Origin: Bdellovibrionota bacterium
GTDB lineage: Bacteria > Bdellovibrionota > UBA1018 > CAIPTA01 > JAALKR01
Assembly: GCA_965207455.1 (NCBI GenBank)
Contig: CBDBMJ010000001.1
Span: 1,600,001-1,664,000, forward strand
DNA length: 64,000 bases
Direction: 5' to 3'
The notes under the pieces are model-generated. The model had not been told where the DNA came from, made no database searches, and saw only the letters and a list, made by a program, of their open reading frames with translations. The translations under genes and the position numbers were made by a program. Positions 1 through 11,478 of the stretch are shown piece by piece (positions within the stretch are counted from its first letter, which is position 1; each line of letters starts with the position of its first letter).

Positions 1-1
1 C

Positions 2-520
2 ATTCACAACGCTTGCTTGCAGCCACCGGTGAAAAGAAAAAAATGGCATAAGCAGGGAGGCAAGGAAGTTAATAGACAGCATGAGTGGAGGCAGGACATT
101 GGTTCGTGGAACTAATTGGTCTGGTGCTCCCAGATCGGGAATAACAGAAAAACTCTGACCCTTGAGGCTTGGCAGGTCCGAGAACAGATAAAAAGCAAGA
201 ATCAGAAAAGGTATTTGCACAAGCAGGGGAGTAATTCCTAAGATGGAAAAGATTGGATTATAGGAGTAGCGGTTAAACAGGGACTGTTTTCTTAGGAAGA
301 GTGCCTTGCCTTTATACAGTGATTTTAAATGATCCAGCTGTGGTGAGAGAATTTCATTATAGATGCGTTCCCATGCAGAGAATTTCTCTGCATATCTCAC
401 AAAAGGATAGGTGATTAGGCTTGTAAGAAACGAAAAGAGTAGAATGGAGAATCCATAACTGCCCGTAATATTTACGATGCCCAGGTATATATGTTCTGCG
501 CCAGATAGTAGGAAATTCAT
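2..520 (-). CDS. YidC/Oxa1-family membrane insertase-like protein, N-terminal part (runs off window start)
   Basis: Missing from ORF track; manual translation from ATG at 520 (ATGA overlap with upstream stop) gives MNFLLSGAEHIYLGIVNITGSYGFSILLFSFLTSLITYPF...LSPQLDHLKSLYKG...YNPIFSILGITPLLVQIPFLILAFY...IPDLGAPD, with YidC-type hallmarks (YG.SI, PQL..LK, NP, L.QIPF, DL..PD). Confidence 0.75.
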   Translation of the reverse strand, partial: MNFLLSGAEHIYLGIVNITGSYGFSILLFSFLTSLITYPFVRYAEKFSAWERIYNEILSPQLDHLKSLYKGKALFLRKQSLFNRYSYNPIFSILGITPLLVQIPFLILAFYLFSDLPSLKGQSFSVIPDLGAPDQLVPRTNVLPPLMLSINFLASLLMPFFSFHRWLQASVVN

Positions 521-1797
521 TTGTCGCTCGCCATATTTTTAGATGGTTGTGCTAGGTAATCGGCAATATATTCTGAGGAATTGCCGAGATTTTTAATTGT
601 TTTTTGTCGGAATTCTTTTAAATCTAGATTCGTATTTTGGAGAAGAGTTTTTTCCACAATTTTCGTTAACGTTTTTATTTCACTTTTTTTAATAAAGCTT
701 CCTATCTCATGGGTGGCTTGTTCTCCCCATATTTCTGCCAAATCATCTGCCTCAAATAGGAATAAATTTTCCCTAGGTACTTCCAAAGAAATTACAGGTT
801 TTTCGTATGTGAAGGCATAATCAAACCGTAATGAGGATGTGTCCGATATTAAAAGGCTGGATTTTTGCATAGAATCTCCGGGGGAGATTTCTCTATCCCA
901 GGTAATATTTTTATATTTTTCTGTTTCCTTCTCACAAGTGCGAATAAAATCAGCCTCGATTTGATAGGAATAGGGATGGGCTCGAATAATAATTTCATAG
1001 CCTGCACGTGCCAGTTCTATTATGAAACCTAGGCCATAGGTCTGTAGGCATCCCTTCTCTCCCCATGAGGATCCCACAAGTAGGGTGTTTTTGTCATAAG
1101 CTAAATTATTTTTCCTGTTTTGATAGAGTTTATCTAAATAGGGTAAGCCCATGGTCACTAATTCTTTTCTTTTGAGGTTTCTTTTTTTCTCTATAGTACG
1201 AATGGCGTTGATCTGGAAATCGCCGACGAGGAGTACGCTATCATAGTGGTCCAAAGAGCCTTTCTTGTAGTAGGAAATATCTGCCACTGAGTGAAAAACA
1301 TGAACGAGGTTTTTTACTTTTGCAGGTCGGTCAAAAGGATAACTTTTTGTCCCAATATTCGGTGACGTGGCTAGCATTACGGGAGCGATGCTCTTGGATA
1401 GTCGTGAAAATCCGAGAATATTTTTTCTTAGCAGCTTGGAGTGCATAAAGGGGCTATCTATTGTTAAGGCTTCATCATGGACGTCGAAAGTAAAATACCG
1501 GAACGAGATTTTCTTTTTTATCAAAGCCGCAATAATGGGTTGGAATGTGTCCCTATATTCCCTACCTTCACCGAATATAATGGGCATGTCCGTATTATAA
1601 AAAATATTTTTACTCCTACCCATTAGATTATAGATAAAAGATTGAACGGAATAAATAAGAGCGCCAAAGATGGATAGTATGGCTGTAACTAGGGCGCTGC
1701 TACTGCCGGGGTCTAGGTAGCCGTATGCTCGGTTGGGAAGAATGAATAGGATGAGAATGGGCCAAGCCAGCAGCGATGCCCTGTGTAAAAACGCCAT
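517..1797 (-). CDS. CDP-glycerol glycerophosphotransferase (TagF/TagB-like) family protein with N-terminal YLDPG membrane segment
   Basis: ORF 517..1833, likely ATG 1797; motifs VHVFHS, GLPYLD, SSWG, IRAHP, LISDTSSLRFDYAF, KPVI typical of this family. Confidence 0.75.
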   Translation of the reverse strand: MAFLHRASLLAWPILILFILPNRAYGYLDPGSSSALVTAILSIFGALIYSVQSFIYNLMGRSKNIFYNTDMPIIFGEGREYRDTFQPIIAALIKKKISFRYFTFDVHDEALTIDSPFMHSKLLRKNILGFSRLSKSIAPVMLATSPNIGTKSYPFDRPAKVKNLVHVFHSVADISYYKKGSLDHYDSVLLVGDFQINAIRTIEKKRNLKRKELVTMGLPYLDKLYQNRKNNLAYDKNTLLVGSSWGEKGCLQTYGLGFIIELARAGYEIIIRAHPYSYQIEADFIRTCEKETEKYKNITWDREISPGDSMQKSSLLISDTSSLRFDYAFTYEKPVISLEVPRENLFLFEADDLAEIWGEQATHEIGSFIKKSEIKTLTKIVEKTLLQNTNLDLKEFRQKTIKNLGNSSEYIADYLAQPSKNMASDK

Positions 1798-1897
1798 AGA
1801 TGAGAGAATAAAACAAAAAATATATAAGGTCAACCTTGGGCCTCCATTGAAGAGTTAAGCGATGGGTGGTATGTATGGGGAATATTGAGGATAGTCC

Positions 1898-3172
1898 ATG
1901 AGTGATAAAACAGTTTATGTTGGTATGAGCGCAGATTTACTGCATCCAGGGCATATAAATATTTTAAAAATAGCTGCTTCCCATGGAAAGGTGACGGTTG
2001 GGCTTTTAACCGATAAGGCTATCGCTAGTTATAAGCGATTGCCCTATATGGAGTATGAGCAAAGAAAAGCAGTTGTGGAGAGTATTGGTGCTGTTCACCA
2101 AGTAATTCCTCAGTACAGCTTGGACTATACGGAGAACTTGGAGCGTGTTCGTCCCGATTATGTTGTTCATGGTGATGATTGGATGTCTGGCTCGCAACGT
2201 AGGGTTAGGGACAAGGTTATTGAGCAAATAAAACAATGGGGAGGGGAATTAATTGAACCCAAGTATACAGAGGGTATTAATTCAACGAACTTAAATATGA
2301 TCTTGCGTGAGATTGGCACAACACCAGACATACGAAGGAAAAGATTATATCGTTTAATTCAGTCGAAATCGCTTGTGCGAGTTATGGAGGCCCATAACGG
2401 TTTAAGCGCATTAATTGTGGAGAAAACTCGGGTTAAAAAAGAAAATGTGGATCAGGAATTTGATGCCGTATGGGAGAGCAGCCTCACGGATTCTGGATCC
2501 AAGGGGAAACCGGATATTGAGCTTGTGAGTCCCAACGATCGTCTCCAAACCGTGAACGAGATTTTTGAAGTGACCACAAAGCCAATGATATATGATGGTG
2601 GCACAGGTGGTTTTCCTGAGCATTTTGTATTTACGGTGCGTTCTTTGGAGAGGCTTGGAGTTTCCGCTGTTATTATTGGAGATACACTGGGTTTAGGCTC
2701 CACTTTGGGTGCGGAATATAAGCAAGCTCCCACCGAAGATTTTTGTTATAAAATTAGGATGGGTTGCAAGGCATCGATTACCAAGGATTTTATGATTATG
2801 GCAAGAATAGAGAATATTAAAAAAGATATGGGGAGTGCTCTGGATCGAGTCGAGGCTTATATTCATGCTGGAGCCAGTGCCATTATGGTACATTCAGGGG
2901 ATGCGTCTGAGGAAATGAAATTTGCAAAGGAATACCACAAAAAAGGTCATACAGCGCCGCTAGTGTGTATGCCATCCAATTATAGTCATGCTTATGAAGA
3001 GGATCTTATGAAAGCAGGTTTTCAAATTATCATCTATGGAAATCAATTATTGTGTTCCGCATATCCTGCAATGAAGAAGACGGCAGAGCTGATTTTAAAA
3101 AATAATCGTTCTTTGGAGTGTGATGATTTTTGTGCAGACACCAGCGACATTTTTAATTTAATTTCAAGATAG
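1898..3172 (+). CDS. pepM: Cytidylyltransferase fused to a PEP mutase-like domain with degenerate catalytic motif
   Basis: N-term ADLLHPGH (HxGH) and VHGDDW; C-term [32 protein letters not shown]; expected EDKxxxxxNS replaced by [10 protein letters not shown]. Confidence 0.85.
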
Positions 3173-3182
3173 CGAGAAATAC

Positions 3183-4310
3183 ATGATAAAAGAATTTATT
3201 GGAAGGGGCAGTGTTCAGGCACTTTTTGATCATATACGATTGAAAAATCACTCTGATATTTTCATCGTCACGGGAAAGAAACCATTTCAAAACACAGGTA
3301 TAAAGGAACTGCTTACATCTTATTTTTCCACCACAAAGTGCCATTTCTTCACGGATTTTTCTGTGGACCCCAAATGGATGGACATGAAGAAAGGGATAGC
3401 TGCTTTTCAGCAAAGTAAGGCTGGAGCAATTATGGCTATCGGTGGAGGCAGTGTGATGGATATGGGCAAATTGATTAAGGCGGGTTCAGTTCATAAAGAA
3501 AATTTTATGGATATTGTGTTGAAGGGTAAGCCTTTGACGAATCCAGGAGTTCCCCTTTATATTGTACCCACAACGGCTGGATCGGGTAGTGAAGCTACGC
3601 ACTTTGCGGTTATCTATATAGAAGGAAAAAAATATTCTCTTGCCCACCCATTTATTTATGCAAATGCTGTTGCTGTTGATTCAGAAATGACAGCCTCAAT
3701 GCCTCTCGCGCTAAGAGCCCAAACCGCCTTTGATGCCCTATCTCAGGCCACAGAATCCTACTGGTCCTGTGGTGCCACAACAGACAGCAGAGTTCATGCA
3801 AAAAAAGCCATGCAACTTATTTTGCCCAATATGGTTGCAGCCGTTAATCAGCCAAACGATGAGAATAGAGGCGCGATGATGGAGGCTGCGCACCTAGCAG
3901 GGAAAGCGATTGATATATCCAAGACAACACTAGCCCATGCCCTGTCCTATCACTTAACTTCTGAATATTCCATTCCCCATGGTCATGCGGTAGCCCTTTG
4001 CCTTGGTAAATGTTTTACTCTTCATGGAAATGCCGAATCTCTTTCACCCCTATATACAAAAAATTCCTTCCAGAAAATCATGGAAGACATATATAAACTG
4101 TATGGTTGCAAAAACGCAAAAGAATGTGAAGAAAAATGGTATCGACTTATGGATGCTTGTCATCTAGAGCGTTCGTTATTGAAAATAGGTCTTAATACAA
4201 AAGAGCTCCAGGGGGTATTTTCTAAAAGTGCGAACCCGGAAAGGTTATCCAATAACCCGGTGAAAGTAATGCCGAGAGATATCCTAACGATGTATGATTT
4301 TTCTTATTAG
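3183..4310 (+). CDS. Iron-containing alcohol dehydrogenase (phosphonoacetaldehyde reductase-like)
   Basis: GGGSVMD, PTTAGSGSEATHFAV, DALSQATES, TTLAHALSY, HGHAVA; directly follows the pepM-like gene. Confidence 0.85.
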   Translation: MIKEFIGRGSVQALFDHIRLKNHSDIFIVTGKKPFQNTGIKELLTSYFSTTKCHFFTDFSVDPKWMDMKKGIAAFQQSKAGAIMAIGGGSVMDMGKLIKAGSVHKENFMDIVLKGKPLTNPGVPLYIVPTTAGSGSEATHFAVIYIEGKKYSLAHPFIYANAVAVDSEMTASMPLALRAQTAFDALSQATESYWSCGATTDSRVHAKKAMQLILPNMVAAVNQPNDENRGAMMEAAHLAGKAIDISKTTLAHALSYHLTSEYSIPHGHAVALCLGKCFTLHGNAESLSPLYTKNSFQKIMEDIYKLYGCKNAKECEEKWYRLMDACHLERSLLKIGLNTKELQGVFSKSANPERLSNNPVKVMPRDILTMYDFSY

Positions 4311-5339
4311 GATGGGCAGTATATAATAAAGAAAAGCAATAAGCATGTAAGGAATAAAAAGAAATGTGCTGTCCTTATGGAGAATGCTCATCATTATTCT
4401 ATCCATGTAGCCAGGTGTATGTGTTTCTTCTAGTTTTATTTCCTCTGGTTTTATTTTCTTCGCAGCGCTGCAAATTTTTTTGTAAAATTCAAACCATTTA
4501 TTTAATGGAGCATGTTTTACTAAATGAAGGAAAAAGAATCGTATATAGAATAGATGGAGCAGGGTCATGTCTCTCTTGGAGGCTTTGATGCTGTTATAGG
4601 CTTCCTTGGAGAACTCATACGACGGGAAAACATCAAAAGATTGAAGAGAGCGTTTGCTTGTTATGCTGCCTGCATGCCTCCGGTAGTAAAGCAAGGTATG
4701 GTTTATTTTGCATATCTTATTAGAAACAAGAAACATTTTTTTTGCAGGTAGAATATCCTCGCTCATCCTTAGATCAGCAGGAGCTTGTATATTATATTGG
4801 TTCCAAACGGATTTTTTAAAAAGTTTCCAGCATATCGTTATAAAATGAAAAGAATGATAGAAGAAATCGTCAGAGAGGTCTTGGCGACAAAACACTGAGG
4901 GAAGTGTACTAAATTCTTGATTAAATTTTGTAGAGGCTGGGGCAGGCAGTGGCGTATAATTTTTCTGGTCTTTAAATTTTTTATAATCCCCTAAGACAAT
5001 ATCAGCATTATGTTCTACGGCTGCTTTATGGGCTTCTTCTAGGGCGTTGGGAGGAATCAAATCATCCGGGTCGAGGAAGAATAGGTATTCCCCTTGGGCG
5101 TGCGCCACTCCTGAGTTGCGAGCAGCACCCGTGCCCTGGTTTTCTTGGGTTAGGATTTTAATTCGAGGGTCAAGTGCTGCTGCCTCGCGAACAATTGCTT
5201 CAGACTGATCTGGAGATCCATCTATAACGAAGATGGCTTCCCAATTTTCCATGCTTTGATTTTGCACGGAGATCAGGCAATTCTTTAGCCAAGGTTCCAC
5301 ATTATACACGGGCAGGATGATAGAAATACTAGGACCCAT
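4284..5339 (-). CDS. Glycosyltransferase family 2
   Basis: SIILPVYNVE, IDGSPD, NQGTGAARNSG, FLDPDD, SED, YYRR. Confidence 0.9.
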   Translation of the reverse strand: MGPSISIILPVYNVEPWLKNCLISVQNQSMENWEAIFVIDGSPDQSEAIVREAAALDPRIKILTQENQGTGAARNSGVAHAQGEYLFFLDPDDLIPPNALEEAHKAAVEHNADIVLGDYKKFKDQKNYTPLPAPASTKFNQEFSTLPSVFCRQDLSDDFFYHSFHFITICWKLFKKSVWNQYNIQAPADLRMSEDILPAKKMFLVSNKICKINHTLLYYRRHAGSITSKRSLQSFDVFPSYEFSKEAYNSIKASKRDMTLLHLFYIRFFFLHLVKHAPLNKWFEFYKKICSAAKKIKPEEIKLEETHTPGYMDRIMMSILHKDSTFLFIPYMLIAFLYYILPILIRKIIHR

Positions 5340-5395
5340 AGCTTGGAGCGTATCAGATTTTTTATTCGAACGGAACCAGAAACAGAGGCATATTG

Positions 5396-6484
5396 TTATT
5401 TATTGAACCATACCCGCAACTGCCTTACCCAAGATGGAGGAAGGTGATAGATGACTTGACTGCGAATCATACTATTGAATGTGAGAATCATGAGGTGTAG
5501 AAATACAATAAAAGATTTTCTTTTCCACTTATGCAAGTTGAGTCCATCTAATTTCTTTTCGGTTTTTGCGTACTCCATTTTTGCAATTAGTGGGGCGCAT
5601 TGGGTATAAAAGTGCCACCAGTCTTTGCGAGGGATTACGAACAGTATGGAGAACCTAAAGGAGCGAATAAAAAATTTCTCCATCTCAAGGCGGAGTGTTT
5701 TCCAGTGCGGTATGGATTGAAAAGATTCCATGGCCAGTGGATAGGCTCTTAAAATTTCAAGTGATTTTTTTGTTCGTTGGCCGGTATTACTATTGTATCT
5801 TCGGCGATACAAAACAGTTACAAATGGGCAAGAGACAATAATTTTACTGGAATGGAAGAATTTTTTCACTGGGATAATATCTTCTGCCATTAATAGGTTT
5901 TCAGGAACATGGCAATTCAGCTCTGCCCATAATTGTCTTCGGAACAATTTTCCCCAGCACGTTATGGTAAAACTACTTAGGATTAATTTTTCATATTTGT
6001 CTTTGAGCGTAGTCCAATCCAACGTTTCTGTTTCTTTGGGAAAAAAATTAAGAAAGGAATTTTGTAATGGATAGTTTTTATTTGCATGGGGTTTTTCTTT
6101 TTTATCTATAAAGGTATGGAAATCTCCAATCACCATATCAGCTCCGTGTGACTGGGCTGCTTGGTATAGATTTTCTAAGGCGTTATTGGCAAGCACATCA
6201 TCGGAGTCTAAAAAGCACAGGAACTCTCCCCCAGCATGTTGGCATCCCGTATTGCGAGCAGCTCCTAGACCCATATTTTTTGTATGCTCTAGGATTGTAT
6301 ATCTCTGGTCTGCCCCAGCGTAGGACTCCATGATTTCTTTAGAGGCATCTTGAGAGCAGTCATTTATCAGAATGGCTTCCCAGTCCTGAAAGCTTTGATT
6401 TTGCACGGAGCTTAGGCAATCATTTAGCCAAGGTTCCACATTAAATACGGGAATGATCAGGCTAATTTTGCAGGTTGATGGCAT
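5396..6484 (-). CDS. Glycosyltransferase family 2 (paralogue of neighbour)
   Basis: SLIIPVFNVE, NDCSQD, NMGLGAARNTG, FLDSDD, AED; likely ATG 6484. Confidence 0.9.
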   Translation of the reverse strand: MPSTCKISLIIPVFNVEPWLNDCLSSVQNQSFQDWEAILINDCSQDASKEIMESYAGADQRYTILEHTKNMGLGAARNTGCQHAGGEFLCFLDSDDVLANNALENLYQAAQSHGADMVIGDFHTFIDKKEKPHANKNYPLQNSFLNFFPKETETLDWTTLKDKYEKLILSSFTITCWGKLFRRQLWAELNCHVPENLLMAEDIIPVKKFFHSSKIIVSCPFVTVLYRRRYNSNTGQRTKKSLEILRAYPLAMESFQSIPHWKTLRLEMEKFFIRSFRFSILFVIPRKDWWHFYTQCAPLIAKMEYAKTEKKLDGLNLHKWKRKSFIVFLHLMILTFNSMIRSQVIYHLPPSWVRQLRVWFNK

Positions 6485-6536
6485 GGTATGTTCCTTGCTT
6501 ACTATAGTGTATGGGCGTAATCCAGTCAAGTGCCTG

Positions 6537-9410
6537 TTACAGGTCAAATTTTGACTTGTTCGGAATGAAAATTGTCTTTACTCGTTTATCCATAAATACT
6601 TTATCTTTGGTCAGTAACTCCATAAAAGAGTCTTCCTCTAGGTGGAGTGTGTAGTTCACATGATAGTTTATATTTTTTATTTTCACATAACGTTTCACAA
6701 GTGGATACAATTCTCTATTAAAAGACAACGCCCGCAGGTTTGCTGTTTTCATTTTCTGGGATATTTTTGCGCCCCATTTTTGAGCCTCGGATTTAGAGAG
6801 TTTCTTTTCCATTGGCAGAAGATGGCGGGACACAGACCAGCCTTTTTTTTGTATTTTTTTGAGAATGGGCATAGTTAATGAGAATACAAGGATGGATTTA
6901 TTTTTTATTTTAAATTTTTTATCAATGCCATCCAATTGCTTTAGGATTTTTTTGTAATTATGTTCATTTAAATTTTTCAATTCCAAAACCAACCGCTGTA
7001 TTTTTTTGTGTGAAATTTTGCTGAGATAATTTTCTAGCTTCAAACCTAGGGAATTAGCATTTTCTCCAAGATGAAGATTTCCATCCTTTGCAAGCCAAAG
7101 GTTTAGCCCAAAAGATCGGAAGCCATTATTCCATGCTTCTTTTAGCTTTCCCAGTGAGTTTACTTTACTTAAAAAAACTCGGTTGGATTGCTTGGATTGT
7201 ACAAGGTCCATCGTATTTTTCCTTGTCCAGTAAATAGCATTATCACTATCTGTATATTTTTTCTTTCTACGCAAGACGTAGGCTTCACTTGGTTTTAGCT
7301 CATAGTTTGAGGAAGATAAATCGTATTTAGAGTGATAGCGTTTTGTTTTTATATTGAAAATTCCGATTAAAGTATCGTAGAGAAAACCGTTGGAATACAG
7401 CGATTGGGTGTTATTTAATAATGCTTGGAATTTATTTGGGTATCGTTTTTTGTATTTGGGGGAAAACCACGCAAGCATGGGGATTTCTGTCATCTCGTAG
7501 GTGAAACTTCCAGAATTATGCCCCAGATTATTAAAAATATCCTCACTGTGATCGGAAATATAGAGAAAACCAGTAACACCACCTTTCTTTTGTACTATTT
7601 TTAAAAGAGAGCTAACCACATAATCATTATAGAGTACGCTGTTATCATAGCAATTTATATTCTCCCAGTTGAATTTTTTTGAATCGCTTGAAATTGTTGA
7701 ACCAAAATTTCCTGGCTTTAAGCTGCCCGTAAATAGAGGAAACTCATTTTTCGGATATCTTGCACAATAATGTGAATGACTGCCCATTAGGTGCACAAAA
7801 ATTATGCGGCTCTTCTTGGTTTTCTCCATTAACACATTTTCCACTTCTTTAATCATTCCTCCATCATATTTATCCGCTCGTACTCTTTTCCCGATTGTTG
7901 AGTTTATACTCACCACATTTTTTGCCTCTAAGCCAATGGCAGCAGCCATATTATCCCAAGGACCCATTAAATTCTGATTGGAAATCCAATGGGTTTCTGC
8001 ATGGGATTTATTTATTATATTTATGATAGAGGGTGACTGGTGATATTTTTTTTCGTTTAATTGGTTTGCCTCTGTTAATGCCAAGCTAAGAGTTGCACCT
8101 GTATGGGTGTGGCTGGAATAAGCATTTTGGAATACAATTAAATTTTCCATTTTTGACAAATTCGGTGTTGTTTCCCGTGCGTAACCATAAAGACCCATAT
8201 GCTGTTTATTTAATGATTCGCCAATTACCACAATATAGATTTCATCTTCCTCAGTCTTGCTTGCAGTAATGTCAACTCCCTTTGTTCGTGATGATTGGAA
8301 TTTTCTAAATAATATTAGTTGACGGGTATACCGGTAAGAACTCATTATAATGAGTTCTGGAATTTTAGGGTGCTTGAGTTGAGCCAGACCTATGGTAAAT
8401 GTGATAAGTATTAGAACTATAAGGTAAGAAGCCTTTATTTCCACACCCTTCATTTTCTTTTGTTTCCATAGCAGCGCTATAAAAATAGCTGATATAAGGC
8501 TTGCAATAAGTCCCCATTGGAGAGGAATAAAACTAAGAGCATGCTCCCATACCTCCTTATAATTAGATTGGAGTAATGCAACCACAGTATGCCTATCAAT
8601 GCTTGCCCCATAATTTATGGTGTATGCTATGAACAATGCCGGCACAACGTATGCTGCAAAAAATACGATATGAAGGCAAGCTGAAAGAACTTTAAATCTC
8701 AAGGATTGTGAGGATTTTTGCTGAAAAAGAATAAATAAAAATGTAAAGCCCATTGCTAGGGAGGTATAAATAATTGCCGTTCGAAGATCTTGCGCTCCCC
8801 AGTTGATTTTTTCTGCCAGTAACGATAATAGAAATATAAAATAGGAATTTATAAAAATTACGGCATAGCCCTTAGTAAATAAAAAAATGAAAAGTATGAA
8901 CCATAAAAATACTGGTATACAAGAATATAGAAAGTGCCATCTATCTTTGATTTTTATTCGAAGATCTGCTCGATGGAAGAAAGAATTACCATGCCCAGTT
9001 GCAATTATCTCAATTTCATCACCTGTGCGAACATCTAAGAATAACTGACTCTTTGCCGTTACTAGGACTTTTTGAATTATTTTCCCATTCTTCTTAATAC
9101 GAAAATCTATATTTCCAGTACTTGAGGCTGGTGCAATGGAAAAATTGAATCGAATATTTGCTGGCTGGAGAAATACAATACGTCCAGTGGCAGAATTTTT
9201 TGTACTTATTTGGATAAAAAAATAGCTATCTGTAACTTTTTTAAATAAAGCTTCTTGGCTTGTGCTTACGGTGTTAAATTTGTAGTAATCTTTATTTATA
9301 TCCTGATAGCCATCTCCCATGGGAGCTAGAATGAAGTACGTCGCAAATATACTGATAATCCCTAAGAATAGAAGAATTTTTTTTCTTTTATTGTCCAGCA
9401 AGTGTTTCAT
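6537..9410 (-). CDS. Phosphoethanolamine transferase (EptA/CptA sulfatase family) with extra N- and C-terminal domains
   Basis: TM block then VIGES, GLYGYARETTPNL, HLMGSH, YDNSV, SDHSE. Confidence 0.85.
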   Translation of the reverse strand: MKHLLDNKRKKILLFLGIISIFATYFILAPMGDGYQDINKDYYKFNTVSTSQEALFKKVTDSYFFIQISTKNSATGRIVFLQPANIRFNFSIAPASSTGNIDFRIKKNGKIIQKVLVTAKSQLFLDVRTGDEIEIIATGHGNSFFHRADLRIKIKDRWHFLYSCIPVFLWFILFIFLFTKGYAVIFINSYFIFLLSLLAEKINWGAQDLRTAIIYTSLAMGFTFLFILFQQKSSQSLRFKVLSACLHIVFFAAYVVPALFIAYTINYGASIDRHTVVALLQSNYKEVWEHALSFIPLQWGLIASLISAIFIALLWKQKKMKGVEIKASYLIVLILITFTIGLAQLKHPKIPELIIMSSYRYTRQLILFRKFQSSRTKGVDITASKTEEDEIYIVVIGESLNKQHMGLYGYARETTPNLSKMENLIVFQNAYSSHTHTGATLSLALTEANQLNEKKYHQSPSIINIINKSHAETHWISNQNLMGPWDNMAAAIGLEAKNVVSINSTIGKRVRADKYDGGMIKEVENVLMEKTKKSRIIFVHLMGSHSHYCARYPKNEFPLFTGSLKPGNFGSTISSDSKKFNWENINCYDNSVLYNDYVVSSLLKIVQKKGGVTGFLYISDHSEDIFNNLGHNSGSFTYEMTEIPMLAWFSPKYKKRYPNKFQALLNNTQSLYSNGFLYDTLIGIFNIKTKRYHSKYDLSSSNYELKPSEAYVLRRKKKYTDSDNAIYWTRKNTMDLVQSKQSNRVFLSKVNSLGKLKEAWNNGFRSFGLNLWLAKDGNLHLGENANSLGLKLENYLSKISHKKIQRLVLELKNLNEHNYKKILKQLDGIDKKFKIKNKSILVFSLTMPILKKIQKKGWSVSRHLLPMEKKLSKSEAQKWGAKISQKMKTANLRALSFNRELYPLVKRYVKIKNINYHVNYTLHLEEDSFMELLTKDKVFMDKRVKTIFIPNKSKFDL

Positions 9411-9419
9411 ATCTGAATT

Positions 9420-10649
9420 CTATTTGATTTTTACCTCCACACTATTTGCCACAATGGACCGAGAGTGTATCTGAGGGGGAGTTTCCATCACAAAAGCTAT
9501 TTGTATATGGGATATATCCAGAAGCACTTCTCGCTGGGAATGTGTACTAATGTATAAACCTGCCATATAGTCCCCAAGATTTAATTGCATGGCACACATC
9601 CGCACATTTATTTCCAGTATACCTTTATTGAATTCAAATATGGAGTTGGTATGCAATCCTGGAATATGGAGAATGGGGTCTATTTCATTATTATGAATCC
9701 ATGTGTCCACAAAACAAGGACCATAGTCCTTATCAGCCTTCAATTTAAAATGAAAATTCCAGTCATCTCCAGATTTTACGTTTCCGCATGATTTGACCTC
9801 TAAAATTTCTATTCCATCCTCTTGGTGCTTTATTTTAATGTCCTCAAATTCTCTCCCCATGGAATCCCTTGCGTACCTATCTGCCGTGGATTCAATATCG
9901 CCTAGGTGGACCAATTTCCCGTGGTTTAATAATAAACCTTTATTACAGAGTTGTTTCGTGAGGTTAATATTGTGGGAGACAAATAGGATCGTCTTTCCTT
10001 CACTTTTTGAGGCCGCGTTCATTTTTTGTATGCATTTTTGTTGGAACTCCACATCCCCAACTGCGAGAGCTTCGTCTATAATCATAATATCACTCTCCAA
10101 ATGGGCTGCAACGGAAAAGCCCAGGCGTGCACCCATTCCAGAAGAGTAGCGCTTTAGGGGGACTTCTAGGAATGTTTCCACGCCGGCAAAGTCCACAATT
10201 TCATCGAAGCGTCGCCCTATTTCTCGTTTGTTCATGCCCAGTATGGCGCCGTTGAGGTAGATGTTTTCCCGCCCCGTTAATTCGGGATGGAATCCTGTGC
10301 CCACCTCTAAGAGGCTAGCAATACGCCCCCGTATGGAAAGGCGTCCCGTGGTGGGTTCTGTGATTTGACTAAGGATTTTCAGTAGCGTGGATTTCCCTGC
10401 TCCATTACTACCAATAATACCCAGCTTGTCGCCTTTTTCTACTTCCAGGTTAATCCCTTGGAGGGCCCATATTTTTTTTTGGTTGCTTTTTTGGTTTTGA
10501 AAGAACCGCCAAGGGCGCAGAGATTTTTTCGCTCCTCGAACTAGGGACTCCCGGAGGGTGTCATACCCGGAGTAGCGGTTTTTTTTACTTTCTTGGATTT
10601 GGTAGCACTTGCTAACATCCTCTATTTTAATGGCTAGATCATCACGCAT
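9420..10649 (-). CDS. wzt: Polysaccharide ABC exporter ATP-binding protein with C-terminal Wzt domain
   Basis: GSNGAGKST, LLEVGTGFHPELTGREN, YSSGM, DEALAVGD; likely ATG 10649. Confidence 0.93.
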   Translation of the reverse strand: MRDDLAIKIEDVSKCYQIQESKKNRYSGYDTLRESLVRGAKKSLRPWRFFQNQKSNQKKIWALQGINLEVEKGDKLGIIGSNGAGKSTLLKILSQITEPTTGRLSIRGRIASLLEVGTGFHPELTGRENIYLNGAILGMNKREIGRRFDEIVDFAGVETFLEVPLKRYSSGMGARLGFSVAAHLESDIMIIDEALAVGDVEFQQKCIQKMNAASKSEGKTILFVSHNINLTKQLCNKGLLLNHGKLVHLGDIESTADRYARDSMGREFEDIKIKHQEDGIEILEVKSCGNVKSGDDWNFHFKLKADKDYGPCFVDTWIHNNEIDPILHIPGLHTNSIFEFNKGILEINVRMCAMQLNLGDYMAGLYISTHSQREVLLDISHIQIAFVMETPPQIHSRSIVANSVEVKIK

Positions 10650-10650
10650 A

Positions 10651-11478
10651 CTATATTTTGTCCGCAAACTCGCGCTCCATTTTGAAAAATACCTTAAAGC
10701 CAACAAAAATCGCTATGAGGGTTAAAGCAATAGACATAAAAAAACCTGGTAAATAAAAATCTACGTTTTCTCCTAAAATACTCCATCGGTACCCATCAAT
10801 TACTCCCACCATTGGGTTTAGGGAATACCAAAAACGCCACTGATCGGGAATAGTGGCACTGGAAAAACCCACTGGGGAAATATACAGACCGAACTGAACA
10901 ATAAATGGTATTACATAGCGGAAATCTCGATAGAAAACATTGAGGGTGGAAATAATGAGAGCAATGCCAATGGTGCTCATTATGCCAAGAAGCATAAAGC
11001 AGGGAAGGAGGAGGATTTTCCAGTCGGGTACGAATTGATAGTAGACCATAAGACCAAATAAAATAAACAGAGAGATGAAGGTGTCCACAAGAGCAGTCAT
11101 GATAGTACTCATGGGTATGATGAGGCGGGGGAAATAGATTTTTGAAATGAGTTGGGTATTGTTAATCAAGCTGTCACTACTGAGTTGAATAGCAGAGGCA
11201 AAGAATTGCCAGGGAAGCAGTCCCGCAAACACGAGAAGTGCGTAGGGGGTGTCTCCTTCTGTGGGCAGTTTTGCCAGCTTTCCAAAAATTAGGGTGAACA
11301 CCACCATGGTAAGAAAGGGACGAAGCACAGACCATAGTATACCAAGGAGGGTTTGTTTGTAACGAATGAGAATATCTCGCCAAGCTAGGACAAAGAATAA
11401 TTCACGGAACGCGTATAAGGATTGCCAGTAATTCCTTGTTTTTTTATTGGCGACGATTTCTAGGACTGTATCACTCAT
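10651..11478 (-). CDS. wzm: Polysaccharide ABC exporter permease
   Basis: RYKQTLLGILWSVLRP, LISKIYFPR, YRDFRY, LNPM. Confidence 0.93.
   Translation of the reverse strand: MSDTVLEIVANKKTRNYWQSLYAFRELFFVLAWRDILIRYKQTLLGILWSVLRPFLTMVVFTLIFGKLAKLPTEGDTPYALLVFAGLLPWQFFASAIQLSSDSLINNTQLISKIYFPRLIIPMSTIMTALVDTFISLFILFGLMVYYQFVPDWKILLLPCFMLLGIMSTIGIALIISTLNVFYRDFRYVIPFIVQFGLYISPVGFSSATIPDQWRFWYSLNPMVGVIDGYRWSILGENVDFYLPGFFMSIALTLIAIFVGFKVFFKMEREFADKI

Follow-up and report, generated by a model that had tools for sequence, protein, structure and literature searches.

A cytidylyltransferase-PEP mutase fusion with a predicted dead mutase domain in a Bdellovibrionota genome: a probable satellite branch for 2-hydroxyethylphosphonate

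The window, a stretch of 64,000 nucleotides from a Bdellovibrionota bacterium, carries a four-gene cassette at its left end, in which a TagF/YidC gene pair is transcribed away from a cytidylyltransferase/dehydrogenase pair. The following features were assigned:

1-520, minus strand: 5' part of a gene for a YidC-sulfatase-like fusion protein of 788 aa (open reading frame, Pfam, fold match); the whole gene is C1:1598154-1600520, its remainder lying beyond the left edge of the window
517-1833, minus strand: TagF-like gene (PF04464), putative CMP-donor phosphotransferase (Pfam, profile match)
1834-1897, no strand: divergent intergenic gap of 64 bp, no promoter signal above chance
1898-3172, plus strand: CT-PepM-like gene, 424 aa
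1898-2317, plus strand: Fom1-type cytidylyltransferase (CT) domain, aa 1-140 (match to PDB 5X3D)
2318-3172, plus strand: degenerate PEP mutase domain, aa 141-424 (residue losses, score below cut-off)
3183-4310, plus strand: Fe-ADH of the phosphonoacetaldehyde-reductase type, 375 aa (PF00465, named relatives)
4284-5339, minus strand: GT2 gene, overlapping the Fe-ADH end by 27 bp
9420-11478, minus strand: Wzt and Wzm
4284-11478, minus strand: context genes as a whole, namely two GT2 genes, a CptA/EptC-like phosphoethanolamine transferase, Wzt and Wzm

The original prediction had described a pepM-like gene, a gap of 10 bp and an Fe-ADH gene with no phosphonopyruvate decarboxylase gene (ppd) between them, diverging from a TagF-like gene, and this layout was confirmed in its reading frames and strands. 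The stop of the TagF-like gene overlaps the start of the fusion gene by 4 bp, and all four cassette frames are open. Contigs from the public run X1, which may be the source sample of the window DNA, are identical to positions 836-4063 without a gap or a letter difference. Since the changes in the degenerate motif described below are also in-frame, an assembly or frameshift error behind them could be dismissed. Run X2 contained short pieces only of the region and run X3 none. A promoter scan of the 64-bp gap was uninformative (2 sites, 1.4 expected). GC and GC3 of the cassette show no clear difference from the rest, so that the case for a horizontal origin draws only on the patchy distribution and the tree given below.

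The "pepM" gene of the window encodes a Fom1-type fusion, a CT domain followed by a PepM domain. The CT motifs HxGH, SYKR and HGDDW are intact, and only 1 of 54 conserved columns is changed. The domain matches PDB 5X3D, the HEP-CMP-bound domain of Fom1, with an E-value of 3.5e-54, 65% identity and an rmsd of 0.7; with 50 bits against a cut-off of 165 for the glycerol-3-phosphate cytidylyltransferase (TagD) profile, identity with that enzyme was rejected. Judged from these matches, the CT domain is likely a Fom1-type cytidylyltransferase for 2-hydroxyethylphosphonate (HEP), and the non-phosphonate polyol offered as an alternative in the original prediction is unlikely.

The PEP mutase domain departs from the consensus at 16 of 101 conserved columns, compared to a median of 1 and a maximum of 6 in 119 homologues. 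The motif EDKX5NS, present in 118 of these 119, is absent. Taking active-site and motif columns together, 5 of 15 are altered. The Mg-site acids Asp87 and Glu114 are replaced by G235 (codon 2600-2602) and G261 (2678-2680), T263 stands in place of the motif Lys, and the shortened capping loop has lost Lys120/Asn122. According to PMC7916636, Asp87 and Glu114 of PepM hold the Mg-water shell, and Asn122/Ser123 lie in a mobile loop. The score against TIGR02320 (289.7 bits) falls below the cut-off of 319.55; phosphonopyruvate hydrolase, methylisocitrate lyase and CPEP mutase scored much lower and were discarded as identities. The model (pLDDT 92) predicts an intact PepM/ICL barrel with PepM as best fold match (target TM to 5UNC 0.87). 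On the basis of these losses, a catalytically dead domain is predicted. It may have residual or altered activity, because the equivalents of Asp58 and Asp85 (D206, D233) and of Arg159 and His190 (R303, H332) are kept, as are W192 and S194.

The Fe-ADH matches PF00465, differs at 1 of 51 conserved columns and retains its NAD and metal motifs (GGGS, D184, H252 and H266/H268). Its named relatives are mostly labelled phosphonoacetaldehyde reductase and are found in pepM-ppd clusters. TIGR03405 is the best NCBIfam match, although the 156 bits obtained are far below its cut-off of 423.7, so that the assignment relies on database names and gene context. By tblastn, no second match to the window query was found in the genome.

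The TagF-like protein scores 28.9 bits in Pfam (cut-off 22.1); it has a hydrophobic anchor at its N-terminus and contains a YLDPG motif. A profile of 10 relatives matches Cps3D, TarL and TagF, and H181 and H286 are invariant. Its 788-aa partner combines a YidC-like membrane domain (PF02096, E 1e-17), further membrane helices and an LtaS/EptA/PbgA-like domain of the alkaline-phosphatase superfamily (weak Sulfatase match). The model (pLDDT 90) matches PbgA, EptA, EptC and LtaS with E-values of 1e-7 to 1e-5 at low whole-chain TM, and also YidC. A basic residue in the groove helix has a functional role in the YidC insertase; the fusion carries Ser where the canonical YidC of the genome, encoded elsewhere, has Lys, and it stays below the cut-off of the insertase family TIGR03592 (60.5 against 84.3). 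The TagF/YidC pair is not phosphonate-specific, being found at L113 and L227 next to other cytidylyltransferases without an adjacent pepM. Fusions of CT and ADH (P0148) and of TagF and the phosphotransferase domain (P0451) link the cassette parts; a metagenome scan with the TagF-like protein gave no matches. Transfer to the Wzm/Wzt-exported glycan, as originally proposed, is suggested by proximity only, the TagF-like gene being coupled to the YidC-phosphotransferase fusion instead.

Genes of this type seldom occur without ppd. Of 80 metagenome loci, 46 carry an intact CT-PepM and extend 2.6 kb or more beyond it downstream; ppd follows in 44 of these, and ppd together with the ADH in 42. No ppd lies within the cassette; the sole match in the genome over the Ppd cut-off is C1:684659-685768. 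It belongs to an intact pepM-ppd-aepZ operon at C1:682986-686923, 0.92 Mb from the window, with 399, 396 and 387 bits for PepM, Ppd and AepZ, each over its NCBIfam cut-off. The PepM is a PepM-PntC fusion of 536 aa and the one motif-bearing pepM found in the genome. A complete pepM and ppd cluster elsewhere is what the original prediction had named as its refutation, and the premise of salvage fails on it, as phosphonoacetaldehyde can be made in the cell; the proposed reduction, CTP activation and surface transfer do fit the evidence. The search for phn genes revealed a phnDCE-like ABC importer (C1:740538-743060), so that some uptake is possible, whereas PhnX, PhnJ and PhnS2 were not found in the 94.7%-complete genome. 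The binding protein of the importer exceeds the TIGR01098 cut-off and its permease that of PhnE, but the binding protein does not reach the PhnD equivalog cut-off, and among solved structures it matches phosphite-binding PtxB types best.

Among 40 relatives, a full CT-PepM was found only in G015, which also holds the only ADH match, adjoining its ppd. A parallel is present in G321, where a dead CT-PepM and an ADH without ppd have genes for TagF and a YidC fusion nearby, while another contig carries an intact AEP locus; a genus-level search around it revealed no further dead copies in 6 genomes. In G260, G290 and G1268, too, CT-PepM and ADH occur without ppd and an AEP locus lies apart from them, and these three genomes and G321 have one ppd each. 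In G041, one live pepM and one ppd are divided between two loci. An intact pepM was observed in the same genome or contig for all 6 assessable dead copies (G000, G041, G321, G936, L130, L205), a set outside which the dead copy L131 falls with its 7.8-kb contig.

Of the 9 two-copy genomes read, 4 have one dead copy, compared to 0 of 61 single-copy ones (p 1e-4; p 0.009 after removal of the two cases that prompted the idea), in a comparison of related genomes and incomplete assemblies. The 61 single-copy pepMs comprise the best and weakest scorers of one match list and all of another; matches between these could hide dead copies, because the dead copy of the window scores in the intact range. 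Of the motif-less fusions, 33 of 34 retain HxGH, as against 21 of 30 fusions with intact mutase, and the live-mutase partner is without HxGH in G041, G321 and L130. The motif-less share of 34 among 64 representatives at 50% identity overstates how common dead copies are, since each diverged copy forms its own cluster.

The tree places the window copy beside an intact copy as its sister (support 97/92), and a single clade of dead copies was rejected (p-AU 4e-5) with 10 dead and 25 intact rows picked from a larger set, long branches and no mixture model. Mutase loss, as predicted from the sequences, arose at least three times. The dN/dS ratio of one dead-domain pair, from another lineage than the window, was 0.22 (0.15-0.31) compared to 0.03-0.10 for six intact pairs. 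Over 41 dead copies, non-motif active-site columns are kept in 33% versus 56% for other conserved columns (p 0.01), and the decay pattern differs from copy to copy.

Taken together, we consider it probable, at roughly 70%, that the cassette is a satellite HEP branch whose own mutase is predicted to be dead and which depends on the complete phosphonate operon elsewhere in the genome. According to the chemistry of the families, PepM and Ppd of the distant operon would make phosphonoacetaldehyde, part of which AepZ would convert to AEP, while the Fe-ADH of the window would reduce the remainder to HEP and the CT domain would form CMP-HEP as in Fom1. More tentatively, the membrane-anchored TagF-like enzyme might use CMP-HEP to load HEP onto a membrane-bound carrier or glycan, and its delivery to an outward-facing acceptor might fall to the YidC-LtaS/EptA-like fusion. 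Historically, a cassette of CT-pepM, ppd and ADH may have entered a host that already had the AEP operon, whereupon the redundant ppd would have been lost and the redundant mutase would have decayed; the barrel would have persisted, being fused to the CT domain that is still required and probably keeping a structural role. A bolder extension, which we regard as doubtful, is that motif-less CT-PepM fusions form a recurrent and overlooked pseudoenzyme class, their dead barrels being kept by selection for a function of their own (e.g. CT oligomer formation or reductase docking), so that one live PepM and one Ppd split phosphonoacetaldehyde into an AEP lipid and a HEP surface coat, with paired copies dividing the labour of mutase and cytidylyltransferase.

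Other readings were weighed against the satellite branch. That the cassette runs mainly on AEP, HEP or phosphonoacetaldehyde imported from prey or the environment would fit the phnDCE-like importer, for whose cargo no C-P lyase or phosphonatase was found, and the ability of AEP transaminase to run from AEP to phosphonoacetaldehyde (PMC6697681). We judge it very unlikely, as the genome holds the de novo genes in full, the binding protein resembles phosphite binders, and salvage does not predict the live pepM that accompanies every assessable dead mutase. This tie to a second live pepM also speaks against an exit from phosphonate chemistry, in which the CT, ADH and TagF-like proteins would have shifted to a polyol phosphate or another phospho-alcohol. 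TagF-family enzymes do use CDP-polyols, and the TagF/YidC pair is found with other cargo enzymes, but the CT domain is far under the TagD cut-off and, like the ADH, almost fully matches the consensus of relatives from phosphonate clusters, which makes such a shift improbable.

The loss of ppd, the eroded mutase and the failure to find the cassette in 39 of 40 relatives could also mark the whole cassette as the decaying remains of an operon acquired by horizontal transfer. With four open frames and decay confined to the redundant domain (1/54 CT and 1/51 ADH columns against 16/101 in the mutase), there is little probability in this reading. Finally, the residues kept by the window copy (W192, S194, D206, D233, R303, H332) might suit an altered barrel that has taken on a new function in catalysis or ligand sensing, or the ADH might reduce phosphonopyruvate directly to a ppd-independent product. 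Dead copies that each decay differently and keep active-site columns less than other conserved columns argue against the former, and the known phosphonopyruvate reductases, which according to PMC8942020 are 2-hydroxyacid dehydrogenases and not Fe-ADHs, against the latter; we hold both to be highly improbable.

The locus bears on genome mining for phosphonates, which keys on pepM and infers the product from neighbouring genes. Name-based annotation counts the dead mutase as a producer gene and takes the "missing" decarboxylase for new chemistry, while a motif filter discards the locus and so misses a probably active HEP branch. The surveys of Li and Horsman 2022 (PMC8942020) and of Rice et al. 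2019 (PMC6697681) both filter on EDKX5NS, so that the window gene would be removed by either; the latter dropped 22 of 905 fusions as motif-less, without description in the passages covered. Two ppm neighbourhoods are known for about 18% of ppm genomes, and no description of one live PepM and one Ppd serving two loci was found in the passages covered of either survey. A search of mostly open papers found no described dead PepM, in-trans supply or YidC fusion; the supplementary lists of PMC6697681 (22 motif-less fusions) and PMC8942020 (multi-ppm genomes) may bear on novelty. The case also illustrates how duplicated two-domain enzymes can repeatedly divide their labour, and in no more than four genes it offers a putative route of CMP-HEP to the cell surface via an uncharacterised pair of TagF-like protein and YidC fusion.

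Among known systems, the two-domain layout and the Fe-ADH partner are shared by Fom1 of Streptomyces wedmorensis, a fusion of HEP cytidylyltransferase and PEP mutase (PDB 5X3D) with Fom2/FomC-type partners. In contrast to Fom1, the window mutase is degenerate, the locus has no decarboxylase, and surface-transfer genes take the place of antibiotic tailoring genes. With the PhpC-type (HEP) ppm neighbourhoods of Li and Horsman (PMC8942020) and the PF01467-Ppm fusions of Rice et al. (PMC6697681), the cassette as predicted has in common the branch from phosphonoacetaldehyde to HEP and CMP activation for cell-surface tailoring. TagF/TarL/Cps3D polymerases and LtaS/EptA/PbgA phosphotransferases show distant sequence or fold likeness, the TagF-like histidines being conserved here. 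In contrast to them, the TagF-like protein of the window consists of one short domain anchored at the N-terminus, and the YidC-like domain of its partner lacks the basic residue of the groove. The distant operon has the same kind of layout as the Bacteriovorax stolpii-type AEP cluster (GCF 761 in PMC8942020), both, in a comparison by layout only, uniting PepM-PntC fusion, Ppd, AEP transaminase and CDP-alcohol phosphotransferase. Unlike that cluster, the distant operon is predicted here to feed a second, unlinked HEP branch as well.

The pepM-like gene of the cassette appears, as judged by its sequence, to be half alive: the cytidylyltransferase (CT) domain is intact and the PEP mutase (PepM) domain is degenerate. 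The ORFs are arranged as follows.

517..1833, minus strand: TagF-like gene
1898..3172, plus strand: CT-PepM-like gene (424 aa), divergent from the TagF-like gene
3183..4310, plus strand: Fe-ADH gene, 10-bp gap after the 424-aa gene
beyond the Fe-ADH gene, minus strand: GT2, GT2, CptA-like, Wzt and Wzm genes, in this order

The layout agrees with the original prediction, from the divergent TagF-like gene and the 10-bp gap to the Fe-ADH and the minus-strand glycan genes. The lack of a phosphonopyruvate decarboxylase (Ppd) gene is genuine as well, and unusual, with ppd found at that place in 44 of the 46 intact relatives with sufficient downstream DNA. Contigs of a public sequencing run (X1), which may be the source sample, show zero differences to window 836-4063. 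At 4034-4463 a low-depth X1 contig has 35 differences over the stretch and probably represents a related strain or sequence.

Residues 1-140 form a Fom1-type CT domain (E 3.5e-54, 65% identity to the domain 5X3D with bound HEP-CMP; HEP, 2-hydroxyethylphosphonate) with 1/54 conserved columns altered. Residues 141-424 adopt the PepM barrel fold in the predicted model (pLDDT 92), score below the PEP mutase family cut-off and are altered in 16/101 conserved columns, compared to a median of 1 and never more than 6 among 119 homologues. The EDKX5NS motif, carried by 118 of these, is missing, the equivalents of Asp87 and Glu114 are glycine, and the capping loop is shortened. In a review (PMC7916636), Asp58, Asp87 and Glu114 belong to the Mg-water shell of PEP mutase and Asn122/Ser123 to a mobile loop. 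Because the equivalents of Asp58, Asp85, Arg159 and His190 are retained, inactivity of the mutase domain is only a prediction.

Salvage of scavenged, e.g. prey-derived, phosphonoacetaldehyde had been proposed as the source of the substrate. A complete pepM and ppd cluster elsewhere, the result stated in advance as refuting this proposal, is present together with aepZ in the host genome (G000, 2.38 Mb, 94.7% complete; window at C1:1600001-1664000). The operon at C1:680588-686923 (L008 588-6923) has genes for a PntC-like nucleotidyltransferase, a CDP-alcohol phosphotransferase and a LysE-like protein, together with three whose products exceed their cut-offs: a PepM-PntC fusion with intact mutase motif (399 bits), Ppd (396 bits) and AepZ (387 bits). 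This Ppd is the sole one above cut-off in the genome, and the PepM-PntC fusion the sole further PepM match found besides the window copy. The cell is therefore able to make phosphonoacetaldehyde. The operon is probably a phosphonolipid pathway and is predicted to supply the cassette. About 6.5 kb upstream of it lie three pieces of transposase-like ORFs (L007 6578-8073, G000:C1 about 672.6-674.1 kb; family called by eye). PhnX, PhnJ and PhnS2, phosphonatase and C-P lyase included, were not found in the 94.7%-complete genome. The search for phn transporters revealed a phnD-phnC-phnE-like ABC importer at C1:740538-743060 (L212 6538-9060), but its binding protein scores below the PhnD cut-off and its nearest structures are PtxB-type. 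Phosphonates may thus be taken up, but the cell would not depend on it.

The Fe-ADH is intact (1/51 conserved columns altered) and is the only match to its own query in the genome. Among those of its relatives that carry a name, phosphonoacetaldehyde reductase is the most frequent and applies to the majority; its own score is below the TIGR03405 cut-off. Of 40 related genomes, just one has an ADH match, and this one alone has a full CT-PepM. P0148 is a natural CT and Fe-ADH fusion without any mutase. A Ppd and ADH fusion also occurs (L186 9242-11500). G015, of the same class as the host, divides the HEP pathway between C25:4253-5554 and C24:46056-48024, with an intact CT-pepM within a glycan cluster and ppd and ADH side by side on a different contig.

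The genes and residue losses are observed, and each reaction of the pathway is inferred. Most likely, the distant operon would convert PEP via phosphonopyruvate to phosphonoacetaldehyde. One share would yield AEP; the window Fe-ADH would reduce the remainder to HEP, from which the CT domain would form CMP-HEP. Transfer to the envelope by the TagF-like protein and a YidC-fusion protein may follow, as the weakest step of the scheme.

The TagF-like protein exceeds the cut-off of PF04464, and with 10 relatives combined into a profile, matches to Cps3D, TarL and TagF are obtained. Its N-terminus (window about 1690-1720, minus strand) has a YLDPG(S/T)GS-type motif amid hydrophobic stretches, kept in most aligned relatives. 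Its stop overlaps by 4 bp with the start of a 788-aa gene, whose product combines a YidC-like domain with a domain of PbgA-, EptA-, LtaS-like fold; whole-chain scores are weak. A separate canonical yidC is present in the genome, and the fusion has Ser at the position of its basic groove residue, a feature of YidC insertases. Insertases can reportedly scramble lipids (10.1101/2023.09.01.555937). P0451 is a natural fusion of TagF and a phosphotransferase domain. In further genomes, the TagF-like and YidC-fusion pair is found beside pepM loci, but also beside other cytidylyltransferases with no adjacent pepM (L113 in G401, L227 in G1246). It thus resembles a general module for head-group transfer, with other cargo too. 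The sole tie between HEP and the Wzm/Wzt-exported glycan, on which its display was originally proposed, is proximity. Between the GT2 and wzt/wzm genes, window 6537-9410 (minus strand) encodes a phosphoethanolamine transferase (957 aa, CptA/EptC-like) that is extended at its C-terminus by an unexplained ~250 aa, a second candidate for decoration of this glycan.

CT-PepM fusions without EDKX5NS, i.e. with a mutase predicted to be inactive (dead copies), recur. Among the best 150 matches, 34/64 full-length representatives lack the motif, a share inflated by the 50% clustering; HxGH is retained in 33/34 of these vs 21/30 mutase-intact fusions. In 41 dead copies 92% of conserved CT columns are kept, compared to 56% of non-loop mutase and 33% of non-motif active-site columns (p 0.01 between the latter two). 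For one dead-domain pair dN/dS is 0.22 vs 0.03-0.10 in six intact pairs; selection on this pair is relaxed but remains purifying. In the tree, an intact protein is the sister of the window copy (97/92), within an intact clade (99/98); another such clade (100/100) includes two spirochaete copies. The tree requires at least three changes, and a single clade of dead copies is rejected.

An intact pepM accompanies the dead copy in all six assessable cases (genomes G000, G041, G321 and G936, contigs L130 and L205; contig L131 was too short for assessment). Dead copies occur in 4/9 two-copy vs 0/61 single-copy genomes (p 1e-4; 0.009 without G000 and G041), in a comparison of related, often incomplete genomes whose sequences were read for part of 110, 24, 21 and 132 matching genomes. 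The spirochaete set shows successive steps: both loci complete (G087), a HEP locus without ppd (G260, G290, G1268), the same with dead mutase as in the window (G321), and live pepM and ppd at separate loci (G041). One ppd each is present in G260, G290, G1268, G321, G936 and G041. HxGH is missing from the partner with the live mutase in three cases (G041, G321 and L130), a reciprocal split. Six spirochaete AEP loci (L114, L115, L230, L232, L234, L236) encode CT-PepM fusions without the second His of HxGH and with intact mutase motif, the opposite of the window copy; they adjoin an AepZ gene, and AepZ is sometimes fused to PntC.

EDKX5NS was used as a filter in surveys (PMC8942020, PMC6697681, PMC8931226, PMC12723261), and Rice et al. 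(PMC6697681) discarded 22/905 fusions without the motif. The literature already covers HEP branches, CMP activation and genomes with two ppm loci (PMC8942020; PMC6697681). Dead CT-PepM fusions supplied in trans were not found described in the literature searched.
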